Assembly: GCA_903813345.2 (NCBI GenBank)
Contig: CAIIXF020000001.1
Location: 25,544,001 to 25,608,000 of the forward strand
Length of the DNA stretch: 64,000 bases
Origin: Owenia fusiformis
Lineage: Eukaryota
Direction of reading: 5' to 3'
Part shown: positions 1 through 59,832 of the stretch, piece after piece
Layout: each line of letters begins with the position of its first letter
Position numbering within the stretch: position 1 is the first letter of the stretch
The notes under the pieces: model-generated
Databases searched by the model: none
What the model was told of the DNA's origin: nothing
Seen by the model: the letters and a program-made list of their open reading frames with translations, nothing else
Translations under genes and position numbers: made by a program

Positions 1-3000
1 CTGCTGTAGTATCTGCCGTAGTTGCGTCAGCCACTGTAGTTGTGTCAGCTACTGTTGTTGTAACATCAGCCGTTGTTGCATCAGCAACTGTTGTTGCAGC
101 ATCAGCTGTAGTTGTGTCAGCCACTGTAGTTGTAGCATCAGCTGCTGTAGTATCTGCCGTAGTTGCGTCAGCCACTGTAGTTGTGTCAGCTACTGTTGTT
201 GTAACATCAGCCGTTGTTGCATCAGCAACTGTTGTTGCAGCATCAGCTGCAGTTGTGTCAGCCATTGTAGTTGTAGCATCAGCTGCTGTAGTATCTGCCG
301 TAGTTGCGTCAGCCACTGTAGTTGTGTCAGCTACTGTTGTTGTAACATCAGCCGTTGTTGCATCAGCAACTGTTGTTGCAGCATCAGCTGTAGTTGTGTC
401 AGCCACTGTAGTTGTAGCATCAGCTGCTGTAGTATCTGCCGTAGTTGCATCAGCCACTGTAGTTGTGTCAGCTACTGTTGTTGTAACATCAGCCGTTGTT
501 GCATCAGCAACTGTTGTTGTAGCATCAGCTGTAGTTGTGTCAGCCACTGTAGTTGTAGCATCAGCTGCTGTAGTATCTGCCGTAGTTGCGTCAGCCACTG
601 TAGTTGTGTCAGCTACTGTTGTTGTAACATCAGCCGTTGTTGCATCAGCAACTGTTGTTGTAGCATCAGCTGTAGTTGTGTCAGCCACTGTAGTTGTAAA
701 ATCAGCTGCTGTAGTATCTGCCGTAGTTGCGTCAGCCACTGTAGTTGTGTCAGCTACTGTTGATGTAACATCAGCCGTTGTTGCATCAGCAACTGTTGTT
801 GCAGCATCAGCTGTAGTTGTGTCAGCCACTGTAGTTGTGTCAGCTACTGTTGTTGTAACATCAGCCGTTGTTGCATCAGCAACTGTTGTTGCAGCATCAG
901 CTGTAGTTGTGTCAGCCACTGTAGTTGTAGCATCAGCTGCTGTAGTATCTGCCGTAGTTGCGTCAGCCACTGTAGTTGTGTCAGCTACTGTTGTTGTAAC
1001 ATCAGCCGTTGTTGCATCAGCAACTGTTGTTGTAGCATCAGCTGTAGTTGTGTCAGCCACTGTAGTTGTAGCATCAGCTGCTGTAGTATCTGCCGTAGTT
1101 GCGTCAGCCACTGTAGTTGTGTCAGCTACTGTTGTTGTAACATCAGCCGCTGTTGCATCAGCAACTGTTGTTGTAGCATCAGCTGTAGTTGTGTCAGCCA
1201 CTGTAGTTGTAACATCAGCTGCTGTAGTATCTGACGTAGTTGCGTCAGAAACTGTAGTTGTGTCAGCTACTGTTGTTGTACCATCAGCCGTTGTTGCATC
1301 AGCAACTGTTGTTGCAGCATCAGCTGTAGTTGTGTCAGCCACTGTAGTTGTAGCATCAGCTGCTGTAGTATCTGCCGTAGTTGCGTCAGCCACTGTAGTT
1401 GTGTCAGCTACTGTTGTTGTAACATCAGCCGTTGTTGCATCAGCAACTGTTGTTGCAGCATCAGCTGTAGTTGTGTCAGCCACTGTAGTTGTAGCATCAG
1501 CTGCTGTAGTATCTGCCGTAGTTGCGTCAGCCACTGTAGTTGTGTCAGCTACTGTTGTTGTAACATCAGCCGTTGTTGCATCAGCAACTGTTGTTGCAGC
1601 ATCAGCTTTAGTTGTGTCAGCCACTGTAGTTGTAGCATCAGCTGCTGTAGTATCTGCCGTAGTTGCGTCAGCCACTGTAGTTGTGTCAGCTACTGTTGTT
1701 GTAACATCAGCCGTTGTTGCATCAGCAACTGTTGTTGCAGCATCAGCTGTAGTTGTGTCAGCCACTGTAGTTGTAGCATCAGCTGCTGTAGTATCTGCCG
1801 TAGTTGCGTCAGCCACTGTAGTTGTGTCAGCTACTGTTGTTGTAACATCAGCCGATGTTGCATCAGCAACTGTTGTTGTAGCATCAGCTGTAGTTGTGTC
1901 AGCCACTGTAGTTGTAGCATCAGCTGCTGTAGTATCTGCCGTAGTTGCGTCAGCCACTGTAGTTGTGTCAGCTACTGTTGTTGTAACATCAGCCCTTGTT
2001 GCATCAGCAACTGTTGTTGTAGCATCAGCTGTAGTTGTGTCAGCCACTGTAGTTGTAACATCAGCTGCTGTAGTATCTGCCGTAGTTGCGTCAGCCACTG
2101 TAGTTGTGTCAGCTACTGTTGTTGTAACATCAGCCGTTGTTGCATCAGCAACTGTTGTTGCAGCATCAGCTGTAGTTGTGTCAGCCACTGTAGTTGTAGC
2201 ATCAGCTGCTGTAGTATCTGCCGTAGTTGCGTCAGCCACTGTAGTTGTGTCAGCTACTGTTGTTGTAACATCAGCCGTTGTTGCATCAGCAACTGTTGTT
2301 GCAGCATCAGCTATAGTTGTGTCAGCCACTGTAGTTGTAGCATCAGCTGCTGTAGTATCTGCAGTAGTTGCGTCAGCCACTGTAGTTGTGTCAGCTACTG
2401 TTGTTGTAACAGCCGTTGTTGCATCAGCAACTGTTGTTGCAGCATCAGCTGTAGTTGTGTCAGCCACTGTAGTTGTAGCATCAGCTGCTGTAGTATCTGC
2501 CGTAGTTGCGTCAGCCACTGTAGTTGTGTCAGCTACTGTTGTTGTAACATCAGCCGTTGTTGCATCAGCAACTGTTGTTGCAGCATCAGCTGTAGTTGTG
2601 TCAGCCACTGTAGTTGTAGCATCAGCTGCTGTAGTATCTGCAGTAGTTGCGTCAGCCACTGTAGTTGTGTCAGCTACTGTTGTTGTAACATCAGCCGTTG
2701 TTGCATCAGCAACTGTTGTTGCAGCATCAGCTGTAGTTGTGTCAGCCACTGTAGTTGTAGCATCAGCTGCTGTAGTATCTGCCGTAGTTGCGTCAGCCAC
2801 TGTAGTTGTGTCAGCTACTGTTGTTGTAACATCAGCCGTTGTTGCATCAGCAACTGTTGTTGTAGCATCAGCTGTAGTTGTGTCAGCCACTGTAGTTGTA
2901 GCATCAGCTGCTGTAGTATCTGCCGTAGTTGCGTCAGCCACTGTAATTGTGTCAGCTTCTGTTGTTGTAACATCAGCCGTTGTTGCATCAGCAACTGTTG

Positions 3001-6000
3001 TTGTAGCATCAGCTGTAGTTGTGTCAGCCACTTTAGTTGTAACATCAGCTGCTGTAGTATCTGCCGTAGTTGCGTCAGCCACTGTAGTTGTTTCAGCTAC
3101 TGTTGTTGTAACATCAGCCGTTGTTGCATCAGCAACTGTTGTTGCAGCATCAGCTGTAGTTGTGTCAGCCACTGTAGTTGTAGCATCAGCTGCTGTAGTA
3201 TCTGCCGTAGTTGCGTCAGCCACTGTAGTTGTGTCAGCTACTGTTGTTGTAACATCAGCCGTTGTTGCATCAGCAACTGTTGTTGTAGCATCAGCTGTAG
3301 TTGTGTCAGCCACTGTAGTTGTAACATCAGCTGCTGTAGTATCTGCCGTAGTTGCGTCAGCCACTGTAGTTGTGTCAGATACTGTTGTTGTAACATCAGC
3401 CGTTGTTGCATCAGCAACTGTTGTTGCAGCATCAGCTGTAGTTGTGTCAGCCACTGTAGTTGTAGCATCAGCTGCTGTAGTATCTGCCGTAGTTGCGTCA
3501 GCCACAGTAGTTGTGTCAGCTACTGTTGTTGTAACATCAGCCGTTGTTGCATCAGCAACTGTTGTTGCAGCATCAGCTGTAGTTGTAGCATCAGCTGCTG
3601 TAGTATCTGCCGTAGTTGCGTCAGCCACTGTAGTTGTGTCAGCTACTGTTGTTGTAACATCAGCCGTTGTTGCATCAGCAACTGTTGTTGCAGCATCAGC
3701 TGTAGTTGTGTCAGCCACTGTAGTTGTAGCATCAGCTGCTGTAGTATCTGCCGTAGTTGCGTCAGCCACTGTAGTTGTGTCAGCTTCTGTTGTTGTAACA
3801 TCAGCCGTTGTTGCATCAGCAACTGTTGTTTTAGCATCAGCTGTAGTTGTGTCAGCCACTGTAGTTGTAACATCAGCTGCTGTAGTATCTGCCGTAGTTG
3901 CGTCAGCCACTGTAGTTATATCAGCTACTGTTGTTGTAACATCAGCCGTTGTTGCATCAGCAACTGTTGTTGCAGCATCAGCTGTAGTTGTGTCAGCCAC
4001 TGTAGTTGTAGCATCAGCTGCTGTAGTATCTGCCGTAGTTGCGTCAGCCACTGTAGTTGTGTCAGCTACTGTTGTTGTAACATCAGCCGTTGTTGCATCA
4101 GCAACTGTTGTTGCAGCATCAGCTGCAGTTGTGTCAGCCACTGTAGTTGTAGCATCAGCTGCTGTAGTATCTGCCGTAGCTGCGTCAGCCACTGTAGTTG
4201 TGTCAGCTACTGTTGTTGTAACATCAGCCGTTGTTGCATCAGCAACTGTTGTTGCAGCATTAGCTGTAGTTGTGTCAGCCACTGTAGTTGTAGCATCAGC
4301 TGCTGTAGTATCTGCCGTAGTTGCATCAGCCACTGTAGTTGTGTCAGCTACTGTTGTTGTAACATCAGCCGTTGTTGCATCAGCAACTGTTGTTGTAGCA
4401 TCAGCTGTAGTTGTGTCAGCCACTGTAGTTGTAGCATCAGCTGCTGTAGTATCTGCCGTAGTTGCGTCAGCCACTGTAGTTGTGTCAGCTACTGTTGTTG
4501 TAACATCAGCCGTTGTTGCATCAGCAACTGTTGTTGTAGCATCAGCTGTAGTTGTGTCAGCCACTGTAGTTGTAACATCAGCTGCTGTAGTATCTGCCGT
4601 AGTTGCATCAGCCACTGTAGTTGTGTCAGCTACTGTTGTTGTAACATCAGCCGTTGTTGCATCAGCAACTGTTGTTGTAGCATCAGCTGTAGTTGTGTCA
4701 GCCACTGTAGTTGTAACATCAGCTGCTGTAGTATCTGCCGTAGTTGCGTCAGCCACTGTAGTTGTGTCAGCTACTGTTGTTGTAACATCAGCCGTTGTTG
4801 CATTAGCAACTGTTGTTGCAGCATCAGCTGTAGTTGTGTCAGCCACTGTAGTTGTAGCATCAGCTGCTGTAGTATCTGCCGTAGTTGTAACATCAGCTGC
4901 TGTAGTATCTGCCGTCGTTGCGTCAGCCACTGTAGTTGTGTCAGCTACTGTTGTTGTAACATCAGCCCTTGTTGCATCAGCAACTGTTGTTGTAGCATCA
5001 GCTGTAGTTGTGTCAGCCACTGTAGTTGTAACATCAGCTGCTGTAGTATCTGCCGTAGTTGCGTCAGCCACTGTAGTTGTGTCAGCTACTGTTGTTGTAA
5101 CATCAGCCGTTGTTGCATTAGCAACTGTTGTTGCAGCATCAGCTGTAGTTGTGTCAGCCACTGTAGTTGTAGCATCAGCTGCTGTAGTATCTGCCGTAGT
5201 TGTGTCAGCCACTGTAGTTGTGTTAGCTACTGTTGTTGTAACATCAGCCGTTGTTGCATCAGCAACTGTTGTTGTAGCATCAGCTGTAGTTGTGTCAGCC
5301 ACTGTAGTTGTAGCATCAGCTGCTGTAGTATCTGCCGTCGTTGCGTCAGCCACTGTAGTTGTGTCAGCTACTGTTGTTGTAACATCAGCCCTTGTTGCAT
5401 CAGCAACTGTTGTTGTAGCATCAGCTGTAGTTGTGTCAGCCACTGTAGTTGTAACATCAGCTGCTGTAGTATCTGCCGTAGTTGCGTCAGCCACTGTAGT
5501 TGTGTCAGCTACTGTTGTTGTAACATCAGCCGTTGTTGCATTAGCAACTGTTGTTGCAGCATCAGCTGTAGTTGTGTCAGCCACTGTAGTCGTAGCATCA
5601 GCTGCTGTAGTATCTGCCGTAGTTGCGTCAGCCACTGTAGTTGTGTCAGCTACTGTTGTTGTAACATCAGCCGTTGTTGCATCAGCAACTGTTGTTGCAG
5701 CATCAGCTGTAGTTGTGTCAGCCACTGTAGTTGTAGCATCAGCTGCTGTAGTATCTGCCTTTGTTGCGTCAGCCACTGTAGTTGTGTCAGCTACTGTTGT
5801 TGTAACATCAGCCGTTGTTGCATCAGCAACTGTTGTTGCAGCATTAGCTGTAGTTGTGTCAGCCACTGTAGTTGTAGCATCAGCTGCTGTAGTATCTGCC
5901 GTAGTTGCGTCAGCCACTGTAGTTGTGTCAGCTACTGTTGTTGTAACATCAGCCGTTGTTGCATCAGCAACTGTTGTTGTAGCATCAGCTGTAGTTGTGT

Positions 6001-9000
6001 CAGCCACTGTAGTTGTAGCATCAGCTGCTGTAGTATCTGCCGTAGTTGCGTCAGCCACTGTAGTTGTGTCAGCTACTGTTGTTGTAACATCAGCCGTTGT
6101 TGCATCAGCAACTGTTGTTGCAGCATCAGCTGTAGTTGTGTCAGCCACTGTAGTTGTAACATCAGCTGCTGTAGTATCTGCCGTAGTTGCGTCAGCCACT
6201 GTAGTTGTGTCAGCTACTGTTGTTGTAACATCAGCCGTTGTTGCATCAGCAACTGTTGTTGCAGCATCAGCTGTAGTTGTGTCAGCCACTGTAGTTGTAG
6301 CATCAGCTGCTGTAGTATCTGCCGTAGTTGCGTCAGCCACTGTAGTTGTGTCAGCTACTGTTGTTGTAACATCAGCCGTTGTTGCATCAGCAACTGTTGT
6401 TGTAGCATCAGCTGTAGTTGTGTCAGCCACTGTAGTTGTAGCATCAGCTGCTGTAGTATCTGCCGTAGTTGCGTCAGCCACTGTAGTTGTGTCAGCTACT
6501 GTTGTTGTAACATCAGCCGTTGTTGCATTAGCAACTGTTGTTGTAGCATCAGCTGTAGTTGTGTCAGCCACTGTAGTTGTAGCATCAGCTGCTGTAGTAT
6601 CTGCCGTAGTTGCGTCAGCCACTGTAGTTGTGTCAGCTACTGTTGTTGTAACATTAGCCGTTGTTGCATCAGCAACTGTTGTTGTAGCATCAGCTGTAGT
6701 TGTGTCAGCCACTGTAGTTGTAACATCAGCTGCTGTAGTATCTGCCGTAGTTGCGTCAGCCACTGTAGTTGTATCAGCTACTGTTGTTGTAACATCAGCC
6801 GTTGTTGCATCAGCAACTGTTGTTGCAGCATCAGCTGTAGTTGTGTCAGCCACTGTAGTTGTAGCATCAGCTGCTGTAGTATCTGCCGTAGTTGCGTCAG
6901 CCACTGTAGTTGTGTCAGCTACTGTTGTTGTAACATCAGCCGTTGTTGCATCAGCAACTGTTGTTGCAGCATCAGCTGCAGTTGTGTCAGCCACTGTAGT
7001 TGTAGCATCAGCTGCTGTAGTATCTGCCGTAGCTGCGTCAGCCACTGTAGTTGTGTCAGCTACTGTTGTTGTAACATCAGCCGTTGTTGCATCAGCAACT
7101 GTTGTTGCAGCATCAGCTGTAGTTGTGTCAGCCACTGTAGTTGTAGCATCAGCTGCTGTAGTATCTGCCGTAGTTGCATCAGCCACTGTAGTTGTGTCAG
7201 CTACTGTTGTTGTAACATCACCCGTTGTTGCATCAGCAACTGTTGTTGTAGCATCAGCTGTAGTTGTGTCAGCCACTGTAGTTGTAGCATCAGCTGCTGT
7301 AGTATCTGCCGTAGTTGCGTCAGCCACTGTAGTTGTGTCAGCTACTGTTGTTGTAACATCAGCCGTTGTTGCATCAGCAACTGTTGTTGTAGCATCAGCT
7401 GTAGTTGTGTCAGCCACTGTAGTTGTAACATCAGCTGCTTTAGTATCTGCCGTAGTTGCATCAGCCACTGTAGTTGTGTCAGCTACTGTTGTTGTAACAT
7501 CAGCCGTTGTTGCATCAGCAACTGTTGTCGCAGCATCAGCTGTAGTTGTGTCAGCCACTGTAGTTGTGTCAGCTACTGTTGTTGTAACATCAACCGTTGT
7601 TGCATCAGCAACTGTTGTTGCAGCATCAGCTGTAGTTGTGTCAGCCACTGTTGTTGTAGCATCAGCTGCTGTAGTATCTGCCGTAGTTGCGTCAGCCACT
7701 GTAGTTGTGTCAGCTACTGTTGTTGTAACATCAGCCGTTGTTGCATCAGCAACTGTTGTTGTAGCATCAGCTGTAGTTGTGTCAGCCACTGTAGTTGTAG
7801 CATCAGCTGCTGTAGTATCTGCCGTAGTTGCGTCAGCCACTGTAGTTGTGTCAGCTACTGTTGTTGTAACATCAGCCGTTGTTGCATCAGCAACTGTTGT
7901 TGTAGCATCAGCTGTAGTTGTGTCAGCCACTGTAGTTGTAACATCAGCTGCTGTAGTATCTGCCGTAGTTGCGTCAGAAACTGTAGTTGTGTCAGCTACT
8001 GTTGTTGTACCATCAGCCGTTGTTGCATCAGCAACTGTTGTTGCAGCATCAGCTGTAGTTGTGTCAGCCACTGTAGTTGTAGCATCAGCTGCTGTAGTAT
8101 CTGCCGTAGTTGCGTCAGCCACTGTAGTTGTGTCAGCTACTGTTGTTGTAACATCAGCCGTTGTTGCATCAGCAACTGTTGTTGCAGCATCAGCTGTAGT
8201 TGTGTCAGCCACTGTAGTTGTAGCATCAGCTGCTGTAGTATCTGCCGTAGTTGCGTCAGCCACTGTAGTTGTGTCAGCTACTGTTGTTGTAACATCAGCC
8301 GTTGTTGCATCAGCAACTGTTGTTGTAGCATCAGCTGTAGTTGTGTCAGCCACTGTAGTTGTAGCATCAGCTGCTGTAGTATCTGCCGTAGTTGCGTCAG
8401 CCACTGTAGTTGTGTCAGCTACTGTTGTTGTAACATCAGCCGTTGTTGCATCAGCAACTGTTGTTGTAGCATCAGCTGTAGTTGTGTCAGCCACTGTAGT
8501 TGTAACATCAGCTGCTGTAGTATCTGCCGTAGTTGCGTCAGCCACTGTAGTTGTGTCAGCTACTGTTGTTGTAACATCAGCCGTTGTTGCATCAGCAACT
8601 GTTGTTGTAGCATCAGCTGTAGTTGTGTCAGCCACTGTAGTTGTAACATCAGCCGTTGTTGCATCAGCAACTGTTGTTGTAGCATCAGCTGTAGTTGTGT
8701 CAGCCACTGTAGTTGTAACATCAGCTGCTGTAGTATCTGCCGTAGTTGCGTCAGCCACTGTAGTTGTGTCAGCTACTGTTGTTGTAACATCAGCCTTTGT
8801 TGCATCAGCAACTGTTGTTGCAGCATCAGCTGTAGTTGTGTCAGCCACTGTAGTTGTAGCATCAGCTGCTGTAGTATCTGCCGTAGTTGCGTCAGCCACT
8901 GTAGTTGTGTCAGCTACTGTTGTTGTAACATCAGCCGTTGTTGCATCAGCAACTGTTGTTGCAGCATCAGCTGTAGTTGTGTCAGCCACTGTAGTTGTAG

Positions 9001-48000: not shown

Positions 48001-48376
48001 TTGCATCAGCAACTGTTGTTGCAGCATCAGCTGTAGTTGTGTCAGCCACTGTAGTTGTAGCATCAGCTGCTGTAGTATCTGCCGTAGTTGCGTCAGCCAC
48101 TGTAGTTGTGTCAGCTACTGTTGTTGTAACATCAGCCGTTGTTGCATCAGCAACTGTTGTTGCAGCATCAGCTGTAGTTGTGTCAGCCACTGTAGTTGTA
48201 GCATCAGCTGCTGTAGTATCTGCCGTAGTTGCGTCAGCCACTGTAGTTGTGTCAGCTACTGTTGTTGTAACATCAGCCGTTGTTGCATCAGCAACTGTTG
48301 TTGCAGCATCGGCTGTAGTTGTGTCAGCCACTGTAGTTGTAGCATCAGCTGCTGTAGTATCTGCCACTGTAACATC
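1..48376 (-). repeat. Coding tandem array, 141-bp unit (47 codons), about 343 copies, truncated by left window edge
   Basis: Sequence lines recur every 2820 bp (20x141). The minus-strand unit translates as ADATTTVADTTTADAATTVADATTADVTTTVADTTTVADATTADTTA. Copies are identical in the centre and more diverged at 1-9.3 kb. Confidence 0.99.
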
Positions 48377-48417
48377 TCGCCGAAATCTTTTGGCTAATTT
48401 ATTAGAAACATATTTTT
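1..48417 (-). CDS. Giant repeat exon of a secreted Thr/Ala/Asp/Val-rich mucin-like protein (partial, continues beyond position 1; three apparent frameshifts at ~13061, ~11115, ~10245)
   Basis: Minus-strand acceptor catttaatttcAG ends at 48418. The exon reads (G)AA AAA TAT GTT TCT AAT AAA TTA GCC AAA AGA TTT CGG CGA GAT GTT ACA GTG GCA GAT = E-KYVSNKLAKRFRRDVTVAD, in frame with ORF 13058..48367. I saw no stop in the T/A/D/V register from 10244 to 1. Confidence 0.82.
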
Positions 48418-48510
48418 CTGAAATTAAATGAATGGTTGTTTAATAACTTTAATATTTCTCAAATGACCATAAACCCATTTCAAGACACGTAAGACCCATT
48501 TCATGTTTTT

Positions 48511-48731
48511 AGTCATGCCTAGGTCACATTTGCTCCGGTGCCCGGCCGATTGAGTATTTTGTTCAAAATTGAAAGTCAAATCTCAAATTTAAGGTCGCAT
48601 GAGAGATCCTGAGACATTGTACGTGATTTAAAAAAAAGTTTGGTCAATTTGAATTCAGTCGAAACCGGTTTTGAACAAAATATTGCACCCCCCCCCCCCC
48701 CATGAATCGTTAATGTGACCTAGGCATTACT
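48511..48731. mobile_element. MITE, possibly PIF/Harbinger-like
   Basis: 20-bp TIRs agtcatgcctaggtcacatt / aatgtgacctaggcattact (1 mismatch), plus inner IR tattttgttcaaaa / ttttgaacaaaata. Family assignment is tentative. Confidence 0.7.
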
Positions 48732-49599
48732 TGTCAACGGACAGATATTATATGACCTTATCTAGAAAATGTATATTGTTAAATGAAATTCGGACTATTT
48801 GCAATTGATTGCTAATTAATGAGGTCACATGTTAATGAAGCATGAGTCTGGGTTAAGTATCTTTTTATATAATATAGGTATCTTGTAAACTAATCGAAAC
48901 ATTTCATTTTGGTCTAGGAATTTCAGATTTTCAGATTCTCCAGCTGGTGCATATATTTTCTATTTGATCTCTTTTTCTGATATCAATACACAAAAAACTC
49001 CAATTTCCTAGCCAATATATCTATAATTATATAACAATGTTAAACTGTTACAAGTAATTCAAATGTAATACTAGTGTTTCTCAATTCATCAGTTCGTCTA
49101 TGGTTTACTCAAATGATATTAATATAACATGATTCTCTAGGGCCTAGGACAGAGTTTTTTGTTAAACGACGTAAGGGGGATATTTTGTTCTACCTTCTTC
49201 GGGACAATTCCACAGGCAAATGCTCTAATGTAATCTAATGGGAACATATTGAAATCTATGAATTGATTATGCAAAATCGAGGATTTTCGGTACATAACCC
49301 CATATACCACGGCAAAAAAATTGCATAGATCACCCATTGAGAAAACAAGATATGACCCCTTTTCCGCCATCTATCCGAATTTTAAACAATTTTCAATAGA
49401 TTTCAAACTCAAGACCACCGTCACAAAAAGTCAAATATTTGAAGTGAACCGAATCATTTCGTCATACTTTTTTGTAAAATTGTATACACACAAGATAAAC
49501 AAAACCAAATATAGAATTTGTACATTTTCACGAGTGATTGCGCTGATAAATCTTGATTTCAATCAACCATCATTCCGATCTTAAATTTAGATTTTTTGT

Positions 49600-49785
49600 C
49601 TTCTACCTTTTCACTAGCGCCATCTGTTGCCCTTAGAAATGACGTTATTGTACTATTAACACTTCTACCTTTTCACTAGCGCCATCTGTTGCCCTTAGAA
49701 ATGACGTTATTGTACTATTAACACTTCTACCTTTTCACTAGCGCCATCTGTTGCCCTTAGAAATGACGTTATTGTACTATTAACA
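49600..49785. repeat. Three perfect tandem copies of a 62-bp unit
   Basis: cttctaccttttcactagcgccatctgttgcccttagaaatgacgttattgtactattaaca starts at 49600, 49662 and 49724. Confidence 0.97.
49615..49754 (-). promoter_or_regulatory. Three co-oriented CTCF-like motifs (GCAACAGATGGCGCTA)
   Basis: Reverse complement of 49615-49630, 49677-49692 and 49739-49754 resembles the bilaterian CTCF core CCASYAGRKGGCRSYA. The match is by eye only. Confidence 0.45.
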
Positions 49786-49801
49786 ATATCAAATTCAGAT
49801 A

Positions 49802-50672
49802 CATGGTGTTAAAAAAACGCAACCCAAAGAAATCGCTATATCTTGGAAAATACTTGTCCAATTATATTCATATTTTCAGGAAAAAAAGAAGAGACTGTGT
49901 ATGTATAGCCCCTGTTGTAATTTAGTTGTAAAACATGATGTCTTGGTCACTTGCGCAAAAGACAGTTGTACTAGCAAAATACGAAAAACGCTCATGGAAA
50001 TTAAATCACTATATCTTGGAAAATACTAAATCAATTATGTTCATTTTTTCAGAAAAAGAAAAAAGAGACTATGTATGTATAGCTCCTGTTGTCAGTGAGT
50101 TGTAAAACATGATGCCTTGGACACCTGCTCAAATGACAGTTATACTAGGAAAATATGAAAACGCAGTCAGAGGTGACTGCCACAGCAATAAAACCAAATA
50201 ACTTTCTAACCATAGTGTTTTGGCACTTCAAATCTGGCACAAATTATCCTCATTCAATGTGTGGTGAATTTGTGGAGTTTCATCAAAATCTTTCCAGGGA
50301 CTTTACAGTCATGGTCAAAATTTCTCCCTGAACCGACTGCGATTTGAAAGCATTTCAACCATGACTGTAAAGTCCCTGAAGTGATTTTGATTTCACTCTA
50401 CAGATTTACCAAACAGTGAATGAAGATGATTTGTGCCAAATTTGAAGTGCCAAAACACTATGGTTAGGAAATTATTTAATGTTTTTGCGGTTGCAGACAC
50501 CCTCGACTGCGTTTTTCGTATTTTCCTCGTACAATTATCTTTTGAGCAGGTGTCCAAGGCATCATGTTTTACAACTAATCATTTACATGAGCTATACATA
50601 CACAGTCTCTTCTTTATTTCCTGAAAATATGAACATAATTGAACCAGTATTTTTCGTGTTTTGAACACCCTG
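49802..50672. mobile_element. Tc1/mariner-type non-autonomous foldback element with TA target duplication
   Basis: Ends TA-catggtgttaaaaaaacg and cgtgttttgaacaccctg-TA are inverted. Internal ~300-bp inverted arms (50019-50315 / 50358-50655) and a ~173-bp direct duplication in the left arm (49830 / 50003). Confidence 0.8.
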
Positions 50673-51351
50673 TAGTATTAGTTTAACTCTAATGTCTGCA
50701 ACCTTTTTTTACAACACTAAGTCGCATTTGCTCTCCCCCCCCCCTGCGACTTTTTACTACCAATAATGCATGCATTGTTGTAGGCCTTATTCAATAAACA
50801 CTTCAGAGAAGTACACTTATTGCATTCTTTGAAAAAGTAGGTCAACTAAGGTCAAATCGGGGTCAACGTGTCCTATGGGGTGTCATGTTTTGATATTTTG
50901 TGATAAAATGTTAATTTTCTTTCAAAATAGAATTTTTGGTGCCAAAAATGCTAAGCTTCTTAAAAGAAGAATCTGTTATCTTTCAAACAAAACTAAAATC
51001 AAAGTAAATGCTTTTCTTTAACTGAACTTATGCACTTTCAAAGATAGCAAGTATAGCGAAATCCTGAAACCAATGTAACGCAAAATAATTGAATAATCAA
51101 CAATTTCAAGTTTAACTTGTTTTTGTTTTTTGCATTCATATTTCAACAAAACAAATACCAATCATTGATTTAGTAAGAAAATAGATAAATGCTTGACCTG
51201 GTAATATTCCAATATAATTTCGATCCATAATTTTGCCTAGCAATTGCAACCACCTAGCAACAGCATACATACGGTACCAATTAGTAAAATTGAAAAATAG
51301 GGGGTAGGGGAGAATAAAACAATATGCTTGTAACTTGGAAGAAGTTTTCAG

Positions 51352-51423
51352 CATAATTATGTTAAGGTATTCATCTAGCAGTTTCTAACATAATTCTGTT
51401 AAGGTATTCATCTAGCAGTTTCT
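51352..51423. repeat. 37-bp-period tandem duplication (2 copies)
   Basis: cataattatgttaaggtattcatctagcagtttct at 51352 and cataattctgttaaggtattcatctagcagtttct at 51389. Confidence 0.9.
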
Positions 51424-52111
51424 GAGGAGAAGGCGAGTAACAAATACTTGTCGATTACCTGCTTATTGTAGAGAAAAATTAGTTGATTAGCATAAGTTAG
51501 GTAAATGATGGTACGGGCAATTTGAGAGATGCATTGTTTTGTGGTCCTGTATGTAACCTATAATAAGGCAATCTATAAAATAAGGTACTAGTATATAGTG
51601 CAGTCTAGTATATTAGTGGATAATGAAAGAACAGAAGAAATCTGTTTTTGAATGCATTTCATCTATGACAAGGTCATAAAAAATAATATAAATGCGTAAA
51701 CCAATACTGTAAATTAAAGGACTGACGGTATAAGAAACATAAAGATGGCATTACTAACTTAATGATCAATATGTTTAATCCAGTGATGTATAACTACAAG
51801 TATATCAAATTAACCTTCACATTTGCTCATGTTTTTGGCAAGTTGTATCCAATGTCATGATGTCATACAACTACAACATATTTTCATATTATCATATTTT
51901 CCTATTGTATACATGTTGTAGCTTCTAAAATCTGAGATTATTTATGTACTCATCGTCAAGGTGGAAATAAACGTAAACTAATTAATCCATTGGGTAGCAA
52001 TTGAAAAATTCGAGATGTAAATGAGGCCAATATGAAAGTAGAACCGTGCACCACAGGATGGTGCATTAAACTTGATCATGAGACATCGAATGATGATCAT
52101 ACACACCATTG

Positions 52112-52296
52112 TTTACCACGAAATGTGGCGTAAAACAGGGAAGTACATTGTCCACAACTCTTTTTCTATTATTATGACCGATCTCCAGAATGACCTTTTA
52201 AACGAAAAAGGATTCCCAAGTTTAATGTGGATCGATGGTTTTGTCTTATTAGGAAAATCTGATCAAGATCTCAAAAAGATGCTCAACTGGGAATAA
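52112..52296 (+). pseudogene. Decayed non-LTR retrotransposon (LINE) reverse transcriptase fragment
   Basis: FTTKCGVKQGSTLSTTLF (GVxQGxxLSPxLF motif) from 52112, then a frameshift near 52165 into SIIMTDL...SLMWIDGFVLLGKSDQDLKKMLN, a degenerate (Y/W)ADD-box region. Confidence 0.8.
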
Positions 52297-54559
52297 TTTA
52301 CCAATTCAGCTAGCCAAAAAGAAGCTGTGATTTGAACACTACGTGTGCTACAAAATAACTGTCTGTGGGGTGAAATGACTACCTTAGGGACGACATTTGC
52401 TCCAGTGTTTCCATATGGGATATTGGGACAACATCAGCCATACATGTAGCTGTAGCAACTTTTACTGCCGCTTATAAGGGCACTCTTGGCTTTGAATGGA
52501 AAGGTAAAGGACAAATCTATTTTATAACAATAACATTTGCACTTTTGCCTCTTAAAACCAAAGTGAACTTAGTTCAATAAATTTATTGAATATAGCCATT
52601 GATCTAGCCATTGACAAACACCTTTTGTAGGTTTTATAAGGTTTACCCAATGTAAAAGTTTGAGAATAGATCGATGAATGATCCCTTCAATGCTGTTGTT
52701 GGGTGTAACAATTTACCATGCAAATAGACAAATCACACGACATTTACCAAAAAATATTTCTCCCTCACCGATATATGGTTTCTTTGATATCATACTTTCC
52801 TTATAAAACATTCACATATTACATTTAGGTAAGCAACACGATGGCGTAGATTATTAACATACAATATGTTGAGGCTTATAATGAAATGTTCAAAACGGAA
52901 GGACGGTATTCAAAAACTAGATTTTGGCGAATCTTATCAGTATATGACAATGTTTTTACTTTCAAGTATTCAACGAAGGTTTTCTGCATTCCATAAATTA
53001 ATTCATTCTTTCAGATCGCCCGATATGTAATATACACAATTATTAAACAATGATGACGTTATCATTGGACATGTGATGTTTTTGATACACGCAATTCGAC
53101 AAAAACTCCATGCTTTTAGATTAAATTTTGTCTCTCATTTCTTTAAATATATTTTCCTATTCTAGATTGATAGAACTTTACCTAATTTGACTTAATTATC
53201 CAAGTCAAGTTAATTAGCTTCAAGAAGTACTGGAAATAGTTAATGAATTGAGAAAATAGTAAAATTATAGAATTCGTAATTGTCATATCATTCACTGGTT
53301 AATTCTTTGAAAATGGATTTTGTTTTATTTTCATTATTTCTATTACTTATTTTAGATCGCGAAATAATAGATATTTTAACTTTTGTATCAGAAACAGGCA
53401 GAAAGACGATAATTGTATCCCAGCCTATTTGATCTAATATTATGTTCAATTAACAAAAATGCAATTTAGTACTTAATTTTAATACTTTCTAGATAATCAA
53501 TAAAAAGGAATGTAATTAGTGTAATCGGTTAAATGTTTCTATTTCAAATATGAACTTGTTTAATGTCGAAAATGAATTTAAGGATGAATATTATGAAATG
53601 TGCGAAATGCGTAATATATCGTAGTACATGTAAAACTCCTTTGGTGGATCGGAGGCCCTAGATAATTATGTCGTTGTCCCTCCCTCTGGATCATCCAGCT
53701 AAAACTGGCTAGAAGAAGATATGGAGATGCTCCGGGAAAATGCAAGAATAAAAATTGTCTTACAAGTCCTTGATTTAGATAGCTGAAGATGTTTTCGGCA
53801 TCAACTCTGTACACTACAAGTATCATTGTAGTGGAGCTAGTTGGCTAACCGAAAGGCATCGGGATAAGTAACAATGTTTTTTCTCCATTCAGCTGGGACA
53901 AAGCAAAATAGAATACTACCTGCATACGGAGTACATTGACCGAAAGTTCAATACTTGTCAAAAACGTATAGCTCATTTACCTTACATAGAAATCATTGAA
54001 AGCAAATAGGGCATTCACTGATAACAAAATTTAATGTGTGTTTATTTGTTTGTTCTAAAGTGGCAGTCATAACTAGAAATTGGAAATCGGAAATATAGTG
54101 CGGTAATCGCTGAAACAAGAAAATGGCCTTATGACGTGCACGGACCTGGGGACAATTCGGGAAATACGGGCTAATCTCAGCTTTACGCGTTAATATCTGC
54201 CTCATTTAAAAATCTTACTATGTGCTTTATAATCATTTTGAAGAATTTTTTATTCGCATTTCACTGAAACTATTTTAACTTGAAAAGTTAGATGGGATCT
54301 ACCATATTTTTAAAGTTAAATGTACCCCGGCATCGTCGAATACGCTGTACGACTAACATTTCACGAACACGGTTCGTTGAAATATCGGGATAACTTTTGA
54401 AATACTGATCAGAATTTTACTAAAAATTCACATTTTATTCTATGGAACATGTGCATTTATGACGTCACAATTGCATAACGGCTACAGTTCAAATTGTCTT
54501 ATATGAATCGAACGCTTTTAAAATTTTCAAAATTGTGTAAGGTTTTGAAGGCGAGGAGA

Positions 54560-54660
54560 CAAGCAATAAGTTTACCTTTATTTAACCTTCTTTAGGTCTG
54601 ATTTCAAAAAAAATTAACTGCACAATATTGTCATGGCGAAATTTACAAAACAATAACCGA
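54560..54660 (+). repeat. Dispersed repeat fragment, second diverged copy at ~61128-61240
   Basis: Shared blocks ataagttt, tttaaccttct, gtctgattt and aaaaattaactgcacaatatt occur in the same order at both sites. Confidence 0.65.
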
Positions 54661-55050
54661 TTTTTTTATTTTTCAAATAATATCAAAATAAGAGCTGATT
54701 TTAGAGACTTGAAAAATGTAACGCATCGATTTTTTACCACAAATTCCATACATACCAATTTTTACTAACGCCCCGAGTGGATTTTCCCCGGGATTTCCCC
54801 TCATCATTTTTCGTCCTCTAATTATTTCCAAAAACAATTTTGAAAAGCTGACGATATTTAAAAGGTTATAAATGATTAACCGTTAGTTAGATTTCAGACG
54901 GAATCTCGGAAAATATTTTTTCATCGATTTGATACCAATTTCATTGAATTCGGATAAAATATTTGGTTGGCCTAATTTTTGAGCATAGATGCAGTAAATC
55001 GAAATCGAATCGAGATATCGTTCCCTACTTTTTTATAAGGAACACATATC

Positions 55051-55317
55051 AACAAGATGACTTGGAGAAGCTGTACACCTCAGACAGATCACCTCAGGTT
55101 TTTCTATTGTGTTTTAGATATTAGATCGCAGAATGTCCACAACTCGATTATAAACCATGATTTAACAAGGCATTAACATGCAACATGTCACCACCTGCCA
55201 TCTGTTACAGACGCCGGACGCCAAACACCAATGCAACCGCCGAACGCCGAGCATCGTCCATGAAAAAGCTGAAGACCATAACAATATGTCACCACACTTG
55301 TGGTGGTAACATGAAAA
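55051..55317 (+). mobile_element. Non-autonomous Helentron/HINE-like element
   Basis: Starts aacaagatga, contains an acagacgccggacgcc microsatellite-like tract and a 3' hairpin atgtcaccac...gtggtaacat (55286-55312) followed by As. Its head recurs inverted at 59789-59832. Confidence 0.5.
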
Positions 55318-56665
55318 CAGAAAGATGTCGTGAGTATCAGAATTGGCCAAAATCGTTAATACAACAAATCCGATCACCCCTAACATCTGTGAAATTCACA
55401 TTAAAGTCATTAGCACCAACTCAAATCATCACTCAGATTGCATCGTGGAGATGGTAAACCACTTAAATTGTGCGGATTATAAAAATTAATATCAACACAT
55501 GTAAGGATACTGTGAATTTTAAAGACAATGAAAAGCAAATAAAAGTAACTCATGACAACTTTGAGCTATGTATTCTCTCGATATGCCAATGACTTGAGAG
55601 CGGCTACAAAGCGAAAAACGTTATGCTCTGCTTCATTTCTTTAAGAGACTCATTTTACCATAGACTGGAAATGAATGGAGTGGGCATTCTATTTTGCACT
55701 CATTTAAAGACAATAAATCATATTGTATTAGAACGATGTTTTAAAAGTTGTTCAATCAATATAATATACATGTTTTACTTTTTTGACGTAACATTCATTT
55801 TGACAAAGTTGTAAAGTTATTAATGAACACATTCGGTGAATTGGGTATCGGTGGTGATTTTAATACAGTTGTAATCCTTGTAATGATTATTGTCTGAAAA
55901 ATTTGCAAAAAATAAGAAACTGATCTAATCTACGGGGGGAGAATCAACATTTCACATAAAGACAAAAGCTCATGAAGAACAGATTGTTCATCTGATTGAG
56001 TGTACATGTGTTAATAACCAACAAGCAATTGCTTAAAAAAACTTTTATCTTGCTCCATTCAAGGTTTTCTGTGATCCACGGTATGTACTATCCCCTGTTG
56101 GAAAAACTTTAGACAACGAGAAACTCTTATAAATCGAAATGCGTTAGAAAATGATAATTAACTCTTAACCATTAGAAATAATTAAGGTACTGTGAGAAAT
56201 ACATTCATGGGATATAATATTGAGTTGATAAGTAACGGTAATTAATCATGCTAATTCTATTTAAAAATATTGGAATTAGCTATTATTTTGCGCTTTTGAA
56301 ATGTTTTGGCTATTTAGAAATTGACTTCACATTATAATCATTAAAAAATCAATTTCGGTAGAAGTTTTATTTAGTCGATTAATGGTATACAAATAAGTGT
56401 AGCTTAAGAATGGACAATTTCAATGTCTCTATCTTTGCCGCAGGAACAATGGTAATTATCATACGGAATCATAGACCTGTATTAAATAAATGAACAGCTT
56501 AAAATAAGCCTGGTAACTTAGAGGTGACACTACGCATTTTGTTCGTGATCTCACTATTAATTAGTAAAGTCCACATGGCCTGGGCAACTTAGATCCGGAT
56601 AGTTTTTAAGATATCCTTGAAAAGGGTATTAGCTAGGGAAGATGGTAACATTGAAAGAGACTTAC

Positions 56666-57086
56666 CATTAGAACTTATGATATCATTTGTTGCTGATGAA
56701 TAAATATCGTTTGACTTCTTTAGATTCAGTTTCCTTACTCCCCTTGCCTTGATAATTTGGCGTTGTAAAATAAATTTTACCAACGACTTGACTAAATTTA
56801 TTTTGCTTGAGTTGCGACCTTTGAATATTAGCCGATTTTCCGAATTGTACCATCGTTTATGTATCTTGGCTTTCTCATGTTTAAAATGAGACGATTTCCT
56901 CAATAATGAACTATGATTTTTATAATCCAATATAATGTCAATCCACAATTTCTGATTGTTAAAGTTGACATATCTTTGATTGTTAGTTTGTGTAAATTGT
57001 GATCGTTGCACTCTGTTTTGGCTTGAAAAATCAAGCAACAAAAATAGTATCCATAATTTGAGAAACATTGACAAATTCCAAAACAT
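56666..57086 (-). CDS. Probable first coding exon of the giant protein: signal peptide plus basic pro-region (140 codons + 1 nt)
   Basis: Longest non-repeat ORF (56589..57086). ATG is in an AAAATG context and the N-terminus MFWNLSMFLKLWILFLLLDFSS is hydrophobic. A perfect GTAAGT donor follows codon 140 plus one base, on the same strand and in the same phase as the repeat exon. Confidence 0.7.
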
Positions 57087-59203
57087 TTTAAGCCTATATA
57101 TTCTTGTTCATGTTTCTACTGCATCGTGTTATAAAATATTGTCTAGAATACCACTATATTTTTGTAGATGTTTATCACAAAACAAATAAAGTACAAAAAA
57201 CGAAATGTTTTCAATACAGAGGTGCGTTCTACATTATCAGTGGGGGGTATTACTTTTTAAACAATACAACTTAAAAATTGTTGACATTACAAGTTCATAT
57301 TCAGAATTCGGTGATTTACATATTGTCACCACAGTGTATTATAAAATATGCTTATAAAAATATGCCATAATAACTTAAATCAGAGACATATAAAACAGTA
57401 AAATAGTTATGTTTTTTCATCAGTACTTTTTGAACACCCTGTATTTTCTTAAATTGTTTTGTATATGCGTTACGCCAAACAAAACCATTACTTATATGGA
57501 ACTAATACAGTCTAGTCTAGTCGATGAAATTCTACATTCAGTCTTAAAAATCGATTCATTCGCTGAATGCGTGTGATCGCGTGTATTTGAATTTCTCTAC
57601 CTTATGAGGTCATCATTTATGACACACAAGTTATTCTTGAGATGCCCTTGTGGTTTACAGAAAAGGAACTTCCACTTTACTTGAATGTTGTTCCGGTAAG
57701 AATGAATGCCATTGCCAAAGAATTATCCTCTCTCCATTAGTTACAGTGAACTATATAACGCGTACGATTATTTTCAATACGTTTACGTTTAATACGGGAC
57801 GGTTGATTTAATTCGTTTAAATTAGATGTAAATTAGTTAATGGGGCAGTTTATATTTTCATTCTATATCATTAGGAGACAGTTTTAATCACAACGGTGCT
57901 ATTATTTTTAGATAACAATTATTACAGTTAGATAAAAAGTACACTCTAAAATTATATAGTACTGATTCTACATAAGAAAATCCATGGTCATTGTGAATGC
58001 AGTTTTTGGTAATGAGATATTTTGACTAATATTAGCTGTAATAAATCTTGTATAAAGGTAACAAAACATCCTTTCTTAACTATATGTACACAATGTGAGA
58101 AAGAGTCACTATTTATATTTCCGATCCTTTATTCATTGTATGTTTTGGATTCCAAAAAAATGTTTTGTACAATAAAGGCCAATAAACAAAACAAAATAAT
58201 CTGTCTCTATGAATCTATTGTGTCTTTGTAAATAAACTTATAGGCCAATGCATTGGGTTTCTTCTCATCTGTGATGACTAAACCGTTTCTTTTTATCCAC
58301 TATGATACATGTTCGTGTACATATTCCAATAGTTGCAAAAGTAGAATCCTCAAGTAAAGGCATTGCTGTGTTGGAAACAAGATCGGAAGGGTTGGTATAT
58401 AATAGGGGAAACGGGGCAAAACATATTTACACGTATTGTCGCAATTGCTTAAGTATCAAATCTCGCATGCAACCTTAAAAATAGTTTCAATTTTAGAATA
58501 TTTTGTCTTGGTCTCAATAAGTGATATAATGTTTATCAAGCAATAGAAAAAAGAAAATGAATAATTCTGATATCCAGACCGCATTAGATATTATACTGCA
58601 TGATATAAGCGTACGATGTGAAGGGTACGACGACGTGCTCCGATACACTCTTACTTTTTTACTTTTTTACAGGCTATATTTACACGCTTGATTTATGAAC
58701 GTATACTGTATGGTAAATATCCAGATCTTACTGTATCAATGGCAGTTTAGTCTCCACCCAAGTTTGCTATAGGCGGAACCCATTGCATTAGCTATAGAGT
58801 GGCAAAAATCTCAAGGTACAATAAATCTTAATTTAACCATAATGTGGGTAATGAATTTTTCATAACACTAACGGCCAGGGGGTCAGACAAACCCTCCCCC
58901 ACCCTTAGCGTTTCCAGAGTTGACGAGGTACAGGTAAAATTTAGGTACAACATTAGAGGTCATTCAATTCGCTCGAGGGAGGCGCATTAAAATTACAAAA
59001 GTAGTAGGTTAAATGAGGTCAAAAGTAGGTCAAAGTAAAATGACAACGAATATGTAGACACATGTAACTGATGTAAATCAGCAAACGAGCCCAATGCTCT
59101 GGAGTCACATGGAGTTTTTCGTGGTAAAGGAGTTAGACACAATCACTGATGAAAAGCCGTGTTTAACTAGAGTTAACCAAAATTTTCAAAAAGGTCTTAA
59201 ATA

Positions 59204-59788: not shown

Positions 59789-59832
59789 TCTGTTCTGAGG
59801 TGTACAGCTTCTCCAGCTCATCTTGTTGATAT
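59789..59832 (-). repeat. Inverted copy of the head of the 55051 element
   Basis: Reverse complement atatcaacaagatgagctggagaagctgtacacctcagaacaga matches 55046-55088. Confidence 0.8.

Follow-up and report, generated by a model that had tools for sequence, protein, structure and literature searches.

A homogeneous tandem array on the minus strand

In the window, by which we mean the whole stretch of 64,000 nucleotides of Owenia fusiformis DNA that was analysed, positions 1..48376 of the minus strand are occupied by a tandem array of a 141-bp unit (47 aa in translation), which exits the window at position 1. Segmentation resolved a 48-aa head (DVTVAD..., one degenerate first unit) followed by 342 units running from 48232 down to 25, and the unit spacing was exactly 141 in 332 of the 342. 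Tandem Repeats Finder returned a period of 141 with 290.0 copies and 99% matches over 7470-48365, and blocks of 97% and 92% matches below this interval. A sequence-only reading of the same DNA had described an array of about 343 units of 4.43 kDa leaving the window, which agrees with the 342 units plus head found here, and its arithmetic for the 4.43 kDa was correct.

DNA-identical units made up 267 of the 342. The homogeneous core of the array (15239..45412, minus strand) consists of 214 consecutive DNA-identical units, and 141-periodicity is perfect over 30,315 bp (15177-45491). Because of these identical units and this perfectly periodic stretch, the unit number is only as reliable as the assembly, with nothing to anchor the copy number within 30 kb of perfect repeat. 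The 3' part of the array (1..14110, minus strand) is diversified, with 1.17 differences per unit versus 0.018 in the core and with insertions and deletions of whole sub-repeats; its start is approximate, from unit 243 onward at about 14.0-14.1 kb. The 5' 20 units were also variable, at 0.4 differences per unit. The base composition of the array (GC 0.48, CpG o/e 0.37) differed from that of the flank (GC 0.31-0.37, about 33%; CpG o/e 0.79).

Translated from the minus strand, the consensus unit is ATTADTTAADATTTVADTTTADAATTVADATTADVTTTVADTTTVAD, with 20 T, 14 A, 8 D and 5 V; P, S, K and R are absent. In the 338 units with a length divisible by 3 (15,927 residues), we counted 6787 Thr (42.6%), 4693 Ala (30%), 2701 Asp (17%) and 1708 Val (11%). 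Ser was found at 8 of these residues and Pro at none, Lys or Arg at 9, all among variants, and the array contained no Cys. These counts bear out the earlier estimates of about 6,900 Thr and 2,700 Asp, as well as the earlier remarks that the array lacks the Pro and Ser typical of mucin PTS domains and that the core repeat lacks Lys and Arg.

The repeat unit has a codon-like architecture

The 47-residue unit is composed of eight x-T-T-x-A-D sub-repeats of 5-7 residues, each ending in Asp and all 15, 18 or 21 nt long, and the A-D codons vary at third positions only. The first codon position was a purine in 47 of the 47 codons of the unit, and the identity of the unit with itself was 47% at shifts that are multiples of 3 versus 15% at other shifts. 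Apart from three units with a +1 insertion, described below, all six length variants differed by multiples of 3 (+72, +90, +90, -18, -3 and a 33-nt unit) and involved whole sub-repeats. In the consensus unit, Asp was encoded by GAY in eight of eight cases, and four-fold degenerate sites carried a purine in 23 of 39 cases and C in none of the 39.

Third-position variation alone does not choose the strand, because it is common to the minus frame and one plus-strand frame, a derivation that was checked against the plus translation. The restriction of Asp codons to GAY fits the minus frame and not the plus-strand V/A/S/T frame, where four-fold degeneracy would be expected at these sites. Comparison between units gave 44 distinct substitutions, distributed 18/16/10 over the three codon positions, of which 9 were synonymous and 35 were not, with about 30% synonymous expected. 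No signal of purifying selection was present among these 44 substitutions, and the selection test on unit variants was uninformative.

That the array is open does not argue for coding. A long ORF results whenever a stop-free unit is repeated in tandem, so that the one seen here is not in itself beyond chance: of 20,000 mononucleotide shuffles of this unit, 47.9% had at least one open frame, as did 52% of Markov-1 units. Two of the three plus-strand frames were also open, for 35 kb, giving three open frames among the six; at least three open frames arose in only 1.2-2.3% of shuffled units. Under the ciliate code, nothing long was opened.

A candidate first exon and a splice-compatible junction precede the array

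The array frame needs an upstream exon, because no in-frame ATG precedes the array; the unique start of exon 2, (E)KYVSNKLAKRFRR at 48377..48417 (minus strand), is likewise without one. The candidate exon 1 lies at 56666..57086 on the minus strand and begins at ATG 57086, with a second in-frame ATG at 57068; its 421 nt correspond to 140 codons plus 1 base. It is directly followed by a GTAAGT splice donor in phase 1 (56660..56665), a putative 8.2-kb intron (48418..56665), within which lie a foldback repeat and a 62-bp x3 tandem, and a splice acceptor with a pyrimidine-rich run, aaccattcatttaatttcag (48418..48437), which supplies 2 bases, all on the minus strand. The acceptor sequence reads ...catttaatttcag, followed by AA at 48417, and the predicted spliced product is ...ISSN-E-KYVSNKLAKRFRR-DVTVAD. 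The join of 56666 to 48417 proposed earlier, with its GTAAGT donor, tttcag acceptor and phases 1 and 2, was recovered in full. The last four residues before the array, RFRR (48377..48388, minus strand), match the proprotein-convertase-type motif R-X-[KR]-R and abut the first repeat directly, as expected from the furin-type site noted in the earlier reading.

Only one GTAAGT was found on the minus strand of 48440-64000, about 5 being expected from base composition. This sole GTAAGT of the 15.5-kb flank sits within the longest ORF of the flank and leaves 1 base, matching the acceptor phase. The longest stop-free stretch of the flank, of 172 codons, holds exon 1, and its length was reached in 6 of 300 Markov-2 simulations. 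From the upstream stop (48442-48440) to the array there are four AGs, of which the acceptor is the first and has the best upstream tract. RX[KR]R occurred at 11 of 31,118 six-frame positions in the flank; this and the other junction probabilities are post hoc, calculated for features already chosen, and are not mutually independent. The minus strand upstream of 48417 was scanned for ATG-ORFs ending in a good phase-1 donor, which gave three candidates: two were this exon, starting at ATG 57086 or 57068, and the third had no hydrophobic start. Among the models that the sequence allows, the two-exon one is the best.

Residues 1-22 of the candidate, MFWNLSMFLKLWILFLLLDFSS (57021..57086, minus strand), resemble a signal peptide in their hydrophobicity profile, with a 9-residue Kyte-Doolittle mean of 2.1-2.4 at residues 7-18 and below -1.4 from residue 19. 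The signal peptide proposed earlier is signal-like in its hydrophobic core at residues ~7-18, but 11 of the 79 ATG-ORFs of the same flank had an equally hydrophobic start, and inspection of the translation revealed no small residues at -3/-1 of any obvious cleavage point. The remainder of exon 1 is a basic segment rich in Asn, Lys, Ser, Ile and Arg, without Cys or Pro, in which 25 of 118 residues are K or R versus 6 that are D or E. The codon-position composition of exon 1 was flat (G at position 1 only 0.12) and like that of translated AT-rich DNA, which counts weakly against coding.

Three single-base duplications interrupt the frame

Three units of the array are 142 bp long, each through duplication of one base on the minus strand. 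The first duplication (C to CC, 13061..13062) creates a TGA at 13060-13058, which is the first in-frame stop of the array frame; the second (T to TT) lies at 11115..11116; and the third (C to CC, 10245..10246) returns the repeat to the original frame, the three +1 insertions summing to +3. No homopolymer run of at least 3 is present at any of these sites. As assembled, the spliced ORF comprises 140+1+11,785 = 11,926 codons, and the single open frame of more than 16,000 aa to position 1 that had been claimed earlier does not exist. We infer that the three insertions are assembly errors, since single-base doublings that sum to +3 read as long-read consensus errors, and a frame of more than 16,000 codons is present only if all three are such errors. 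Of the earlier size of about 1.5 MDa, the mass per unit was confirmed; the total rests on the three presumed errors and on a copy number that cannot be anchored. Taken as a whole, that reading was borne out for the array, its composition and the splice-compatible join, and was not borne out for a frame continuous as assembled.

Homology and literature searches

No Pfam match above cut-off was obtained for the leader, the junction, the repeat, either plus-strand frame or the 142 ORFs of at least 40 aa in the flank (48440-64000). The 10 + 142 + 3 queries gave only sub-threshold noise, such as RTE1 (13.3 bits versus a cut-off of 29.4) and DUF7577 (18 versus 28), and the hexapeptide repeat was not matched. 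The PDB contained no relative and NCBIfam gave no match. The leader had six candidates among proteins of near length, none at E<=0.01, and 233 among longer proteins, none of which was a homologue. A phmmer search with the junction and six repeats against 1.84 billion protein representatives returned 34 matches at E<=1e-3. These were rejected as homologues and considered compositional: the best (P0002) has 12-residue QQPTTADVMSGV repeats, and the remainder are either low-complexity proteins rich in Thr, from horseshoe crab, mussel, krill and crayfish, or unnamed proteins. Of the 600 pattern matches in prokaryotic genome contigs, not one was confirmed.

In the flank, neither tRNAs nor Rfam families were found, nor any recognisable gene or transposon protein, and a 129-aa ORF at 59398-59787 was without homologue. 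The flank's CpG o/e of 0.79 and GC of 33%, together with the putative 8-kb intron, point to a non-vertebrate animal. Peptide motifs, a 24-nt stretch and keywords gave no match in the main papers of the PMC CC subset. The candidate thus appears to be an orphan, with no homologue in Pfam, the PDB or the 1.84 billion representatives; this is in line with the earlier statements that no named family (here also sought in NCBIfam) could be recognised and that an N-terminal VWD domain is absent, the 140-aa leader having no Pfam match and no Cys.

A candidate gene for a giant mucin-like protein

We consider it rather likely that the array is the huge main exon of an unannotated, secreted, orphan, proline-free and backbone-acidic mucin-like gene on the minus strand. 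This reading is supported because the only GTAAGT falls in the longest ORF in the matching phase, RFRR is rare, indels comprise whole codons and Asp is always GAY. The gene model is also supported by its layout, in which a long intron separates a short signal exon from a giant VNTR exon, as described for mucin and Balbiani-ring genes (PMC13345508; PMC4192438). Counting against it are the stop of the frame at 13060, the lack of Pro and Ser, which are normal in mucin domains, and the absence of any homologue from the collections searched. The earlier proposal of a giant secreted biopolymer gene is partly supported, with a frame that is broken as assembled.

The window would hold the 5' part of this gene. 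From the sequence, we infer that the candidate would be transcribed, spliced, secreted, glycosylated and cleaved by a convertase. A signal sequence and a basic leader of 118 residues would be encoded by exon 1 (57086-56666). The giant exon, after the 8.2-kb intron, would open with 13 unique residues, the last four being RFRR, and continue with 343 or more copies of the 47-residue unit. The protein would enter the ER, and its Thr clusters (43% of residues) would be densely O-glycosylated in the Golgi, giving an extended bottle-brush, from which a furin-type convertase would remove the basic leader by cutting at RFRR|D. The product would be a polyanion with its charge in the backbone, with Asp at roughly every sixth residue and about 2,700 Asp within the window. 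Cations would condense such a polymer in granules, and its release would let it swell to form a hydrated gel or a lubricant, adhesive or matrix.

More speculatively, and with doubt outweighing confidence, the product may represent a new type of extracellular biopolymer: a Pro-free, Ser-free Thr/Ala/Asp/Val bottle-brush of more than 1 MDa, polyanionic through backbone Asp and not through sialylated or sulfated glycans, released from a basic leader by a convertase, and born de novo within a single invertebrate lineage when the 141-bp unit expanded very recently. In a variant of this proposal, the T/V-rich sub-repeats may fold, or be phosphorylated, into a mineral-, ice- or cation-binding fibre and not a disordered mucin.

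Alternative readings of the locus

Satellite DNA is a non-coding, untranslated tandem array, usually present at many or heterochromatic sites. The locus could be a satellite or minisatellite whose 141-bp unit grew from an ACN/GCN-type short motif and is stop-free in three frames by chance, the ORF of exon 1 and the junction motifs being coincidental. The 267 identical units and the 30 kb of perfect periodicity would suit a young satellite, an open frame is present in roughly half of the shuffled units, the unit variants carry no selection signal, no homologue was found, exon 1 has a non-coding-like composition, and GC and CpG o/e of the array are sharply unlike those of the flank. We nevertheless regard this reading as unlikely: a single GTAAGT within the longest ORF and in matching phase, an acceptor at the edge of the ORF and an RFRR that coincides exactly with the array boundary are jointly improbable coincidences, within the limits given above for such probabilities. 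Moreover, length variants other than the three +1 units are all multiples of 3, three or more open frames are rare among shuffled units, and Asp codons are limited to GAY.

A real gene with real +1 insertions has a lower probability still. In that case, translation would terminate at 13060, giving 11,926 aa with a repeat part of about 1.1 MDa and leaving 13 kb of the array as 3' UTR; alternatively, this locus, or this allele, would be a pseudogene inactivated recently. It is true that the stop follows the first insertion, that the sites are not homopolymer runs of at least 3, and that the units vary ~65-fold more downstream of about 14 kb than in the core, as under relaxed constraint; yet array edges are usually more diverged anyway, and the 5' 20 units vary as well. 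The insertions restore the frame, single-base doubling is a typical signature of consensus errors, and downstream indels are still multiples of 3.

A transcribed but untranslated array seems very improbable. Such a repeat-bearing lncRNA would be like Drosophila hsr-omega, a locus with a short ORF, a single intron and a long tract of unique tandem repeats (10.1101/695486), a layout similar to the short 5' exon with a small ORF, intron and long tandem repeat seen here; the unit variants also show no selection signal. However, the codon architecture, multiple-of-3 indels, phase-matched splice and boundary RFRR would have no role in an lncRNA. Translation of the plus strand into a Val/Ala/Ser/Thr-rich (SATVVVASAAVV...) or Cys/Ser-rich protein with 5' exons beyond window position 1 is hardly credible: both plus frames are open for 35 kb and the V/A/S/T frame shares its variable third positions with the minus frame, but the complements of the Asp third positions are complements of T or C only (8/8), no junction evidence comparable to that of the minus strand was seen, neither plus frame had a Pfam match, and to our knowledge there is no precedent for a 16,000-residue polypeptide of 43% Val and 30% Ala, or of ~29% Cys, which counts against it.

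Implications

If expressed, the candidate would be among the largest repeat proteins known, and would show that a mucin-like function needs neither proline nor serine and can rely on charge borne by the backbone, which bears on the origins of orphan mucins and on bio-inspired hydrogels and adhesives. Genes of this kind could escape annotation entirely, because the protein collections searched hold no counterpart. Two lessons concern method: finding a 35-kb ORF within tandem repeats does not argue for coding, and where 30 kb of repeat is perfect, ultra-long reads are needed before its length or frame can be relied on.

Comparison with known systems

The mucin criteria of Pajic et al. 2022 (PMC9417175) comprise exonic tandem repeats in an ORF, more than 20% Thr+Ser, PTS repeats, more than 4% predicted O-glycosylation sites and a signal peptide. 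In the candidate, the repeats are confined to one block of 342 units, which is exonic only if the frame is translated; Thr far exceeds 20%; and the repeats are rich in Thr only, not in Pro, Thr and Ser. Like the orphan or lineage-specific mucins described there (PMC9417175), the candidate combines a signal-like N-terminus, domain-confined and putatively exonic repeats, very high Thr and no homology to other mucins, and its near-identical units imply recent expansion. Unlike them, its array is without Pro and essentially without Ser and is far larger; since Ala, Asp and Val replace Pro and Ser, negative charge would lie in the backbone. The candidate also differs from gel-forming mucins of the MUC2/5AC/5B/6/19 type in that its 154 unique N-terminal residues contain no VWD, C8 or TIL domain and no Cys, a comparison that covers the N-terminal side, the C-terminal end of the array lying outside the window.

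MUC4, in which exon 1 encodes the signal peptide and the repeat unit is 16 aa, is a membrane mucin with downstream NIDO, AMOP, VWD, EGF and TM parts. Its tandem repeat is placed in exon 2 (PMC4856973). The candidate resembles MUC4 in its short first exon, long first intron and second exon that is almost wholly one tandem repeat, and differs in repeat chemistry and in that the window shows no downstream parts. Fish antifreeze glycoproteins are Pro-poor, Thr/Ala-dominated and O-glycosylated on Thr; their precursor, a strict (Ala-Ala-Thr)n tripeptide, more generally (Ala/Pro-Ala-Thr)n, is proteolysed after the signal or leader and cut into many small molecules at internal spacers. The candidate shares with these polyproteins a Thr/Ala-dominated, Pro-poor repeat and a leader before it, would also share O-glycosylation on Thr and proteolytic processing, and is unlike them in its 5-7-residue sub-repeats ending in Asp and in having no internal basic or spacer sites.

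Balbiani-ring repeats contain constant parts with Cys and sub-repeats of Lys, Pro, Ser and Glu. The candidate array is unlike them in having no Cys, and no Balbiani-ring protein was among the 34 phmmer matches. The Chironomus Balbiani-ring genes are about 40 kb long, have a highly homogeneous repeat core of ~35 kb that is irrecoverable by short-read assembly, carry few introns, located near the ends, and encode secreted fibre or gel proteins of ~1 MDa (PMC4192438). It is in this giant, homogeneous tandem-repeat core that the candidate resembles the Balbiani-ring genes as described there (PMC4192438).

The array and its repeat unit

The minus strand of the window is best read, with moderate confidence, as carrying a real gene whose product would be giant, secreted and mucin-like, a candidate defined from sequence. 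No letters other than A, C, G and T occur in the window. Positions 1–48376, which hold the tandem array, have a GC content of 47–48% and differ strongly between the strands (AT skew of about −0.29), and positions 48377–64000 have a GC content of 31–37% without skew; CpG observed/expected is 0.37 in the array versus 0.79 in this non-repeat flank. Tandem Repeats Finder reported a 141-bp block at 7470–48365 (290.0 copies, 99% matches, 0% indels), 141-bp blocks of lower identity at 4805–7567 (97%) and 1–4864 (92%), and a weak 18-bp sub-period within the array, which has not ended at position 1. With the 20 nt that open the consensus as anchor, the array was divided into 342 units from 48232 down to 25. 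Ahead of them, beginning at 48376, lies a 48-aa head (DVTVAD...), a single degenerate first unit. Unit spacing was exactly 141 nt in 332 of the 342. Identical DNA was found in 267 units, 214 of them consecutive (45412–15239). The number of differences per unit was 0.4 for the initial 20 units, 0.018 for the core and 1.17 for the final 89 units of full length. The longest perfect 141-bp periodicity spans 30,315 bp (15177–45491), and because reads shorter than this cannot fix copy number, the assembled length of the array is provisional.

Translated from the minus strand, the consensus is a string of eight sub-repeats of 15, 18 or 21 nt (ATTAD TTAAD ATTTVAD TTTAD AATTVAD ATTAD VTTTVAD TTTVAD), with 20 Thr, 14 Ala, 8 Asp and 5 Val. 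The 338 units with a length divisible by 3 encode 15,927 residues (T 6787, A 4693, D 2701, V 1708), with 8 S, 8 N, 6 K, 5 G, 3 R, 3 I, 3 E, 1 F and 1 M, and neither Pro nor Cys occurs among them.

Open frames, codon architecture and strand

The open frame across the array is no evidence of a gene, as an ORF of any length follows from any stop-free unit in tandem. Over the same 35 kb, the Thr/Ala/Asp/Val minus frame and two plus-strand frames, one Val/Ala/Ser/Thr and one Cys/Ser-rich, are all free of stops. When the unit was shuffled 20,000 times, 47.9% of the mononucleotide and 52% of the Markov-1 versions had one or more stop-free frames, and just 1.2–2.3% had three or more. Units differ by 44 distinct substitutions, 18, 16 and 10 of them at codon positions 1, 2 and 3, and just 9 are synonymous against a neutral expectation for these codons of about 30% by our own arithmetic. 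Individual units thus show no trace of purifying selection, a signal that either concerted evolution or assembly error would blur. A non-coding satellite could have these properties, and we regard this as an unlikely, though the strongest, alternative. The architecture of the unit is codon-like and speaks for coding: all 47 codons begin with a purine and 34 have C at position 2, the unit is 47% identical to itself when shifted by a multiple of 3 versus 15% at other shifts, and the Ala-Asp codons closing every sub-repeat vary at third positions only. Besides three +1 units, all length variants are multiples of 3 (+72, +90, +90, −18, −3 and a 33-nt unit), and every one of them represents whole sub-repeats.

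The three exceptional units are 142 nt long, each with one doubled base on the minus strand (CC at 13062/61, TT at 11116/15 and CC at 10246/45). The first insertion brings in a TGA at 13060–13058, after which the repeat moves to the second frame and then the third, and the first frame is regained past the third insertion. The spliced ORF as assembled therefore has 140+1+11,785 = 11,926 codons. The sequence-only reading had proposed an uninterrupted exon of more than 16,000 aa; its array, unit, composition (including the Thr and Asp numbers), splice-compatible junction and RFRR motif stand, but in the assembly the uninterrupted exon does not, since the frame is broken at this TGA. Its interpretation is supported in part. 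Genuine frameshifts that truncate or inactivate a real gene would account for the break, and are improbable in our judgement; the three single-base doublings, which sum to +3, look like consensus errors.

The codon-like unit leaves very little room for the array as a repeat lncRNA. As to strand, third-position variation does not choose, because a plus frame offset by one base shares the variable third base: ACN, GCN, GAY and GTN become GTN, GCN, TCN and ACN, a conversion with which the plus-strand translation agrees. The Asp codons do discriminate, because their third sites would be free in the plus frame, yet they are GAT or GAC in 8 of 8, while four-fold sites are A or G in 23 of 39 and C in none; this argument is supportive rather than decisive because the sub-repeats share ancestry. 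Coding on the plus strand is scarcely credible.

The putative splice junction and the flank

The repeat frame needs an upstream exon, because no in-frame ATG lies between the upstream minus-strand stop (48442–48440) and the array. The first AG past this stop, at 48419–48418, is preceded by aaccattcatttaatttc and as an acceptor gives two bases to a split codon. RFRR closes the 13 unique residues of the candidate second exon, immediately ahead of the first Asp of the array, and the flank has R-X-[KR]-R at 11 of its 31,118 six-frame positions. The longest stop-free stretch in 48440–64000 is 172 codons (56589–57107, minus strand), a length reached in 6 of 300 Markov-2 simulations. Inside it, at 56665, lies the sole minus-strand GTAAGT of that interval, which leaves one base after 140 codons, the phase needed; GTAAGT occurs once per strand there, versus about five predicted from base composition by our arithmetic. 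A scan for ATG-ORFs of at least 15 codons ending in a phase-1 donor with at least 7/9 matches to CAGGTAAGT gave three candidates, two of which are the candidate first exon (57086–56666; ATG at 57086 or 57068), and the third (60791–60686) is without a hydrophobic start. Together these features are hard to ascribe to chance, with probabilities that are post hoc and not independent. Against coding, this exon matches translated AT-rich DNA in both amino-acid (L, S, N, K, I, R) and codon-position composition (position-1 G just 0.12). Its hydrophobic start (9-residue hydropathy 2.1–2.4 at residues 7–18) is equalled or exceeded in 11 of 79 flank ATG-ORFs, itself counted, and inspection of its N-terminus revealed no small residues at −3/−1 of a likely cleavage point.

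The 15.6-kb flank contained no tRNA or Rfam family and, in 142 ORFs of at least 40 aa, no credible Pfam domain; the ciliate code opened nothing in it. Its CpG observed/expected of 0.79 and the long putative intron suggest a genome from a non-vertebrate animal. Within the putative intron (48418–56665) are a 14-G run on the minus strand (48688–48701, some 270 nt before the proposed acceptor), a perfect 62-bp tandem triplication (49600–49785, 100% identity), and a foldback of about 634 bp (50020–50653, with 81% self-complementarity across 637 alignment columns) accompanied by a direct duplication of 174 bp (49830–50161) akin to its arms; the element at 49830–50653 has the look of a MITE or foldback insertion. 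At 61459–61604 there is a degenerate T-rich microsatellite, TTTTCAATTT-like with periods 10/17/29/46. Two short dispersed repeat pairs, 59789–59832 with 55046–55088 (inverted, 93% over 44 nt) and 61113–61201 with 54547–54629 (80% over 89 nt), are probably from an interspersed element.

Proposed function

A giant secreted mucin-like protein from this locus would be made as a precursor with a signal sequence, a basic 118-residue leader (25 K+R versus 6 D+E) and the repeat chain. Cleavage by a convertase at RFRR|D would leave a megadalton Thr-rich chain that dense O-glycosylation may extend into a brush, with one backbone carboxylate per about six residues. Cations could condense the polymer in secretory granules, and release could let it swell into a gel, lubricant, adhesive or matrix. 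For the leader, sorting or processing is more likely than charge shielding, because its net charge of about +19 is too small to offset about 2,700 Asp.

Relatives and comparison with known systems

The leader matched no Pfam family (best RTE1, 13.3 bits versus a cut-off of 29.4), no PDB relative and no homologue among proteins of near or greater length; the repeat and both plus frames had no match in Pfam, NCBIfam or PDB, and no relative was found in prokaryotic genomes, in keeping with the earlier statement that no named family is recognised. A search of the junction plus six units (300 residues) against 1.84 billion representatives gave 34 matches at E<=1e-3. Inspection revealed other repeat types and these were rejected as relatives: QQPTTADVMSGV 12-mers in P0002, TTTERPTTTVEP repeats in a horseshoe-crab protein and TTEEITTTVQP in a mussel protein. 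The 404-aa P0021 (JGI/IMG), an otherwise unrelated protein, contains about 25 ATAAD/ATTAD pentapeptides in tandem, a pentapeptide that it shares with the array sub-repeat, probably by convergence.

The layout of the candidate locus, in which a long intron separates a short exon for the signal from a single giant VNTR exon, matches that of mucin genes, such as MUC4, for which the cited passage places the tandem repeat in exon 2 (PMC4856973). It also matches the layout of the Balbiani-ring genes of Chironomus, described in the cited text as about 40 kb with a repetitive core of about 35 kb that short reads cannot recover (PMC4192438), but the locus is not like them in sequence. Nor is it a tripeptide polyprotein of the AFGP type, and its N-terminus differs from that of gel-forming mucins, without VWD domains or Cys. 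By the mucin criteria in the text consulted from Pajic et al. (PMC9417175), its repeats are confined to a domain and T+S exceeds 20%, but it is not PTS-rich because the consensus unit is without Pro or Ser. As judged from its DNA, we would file the locus as one that works like an orphan mucin, outside every named family.
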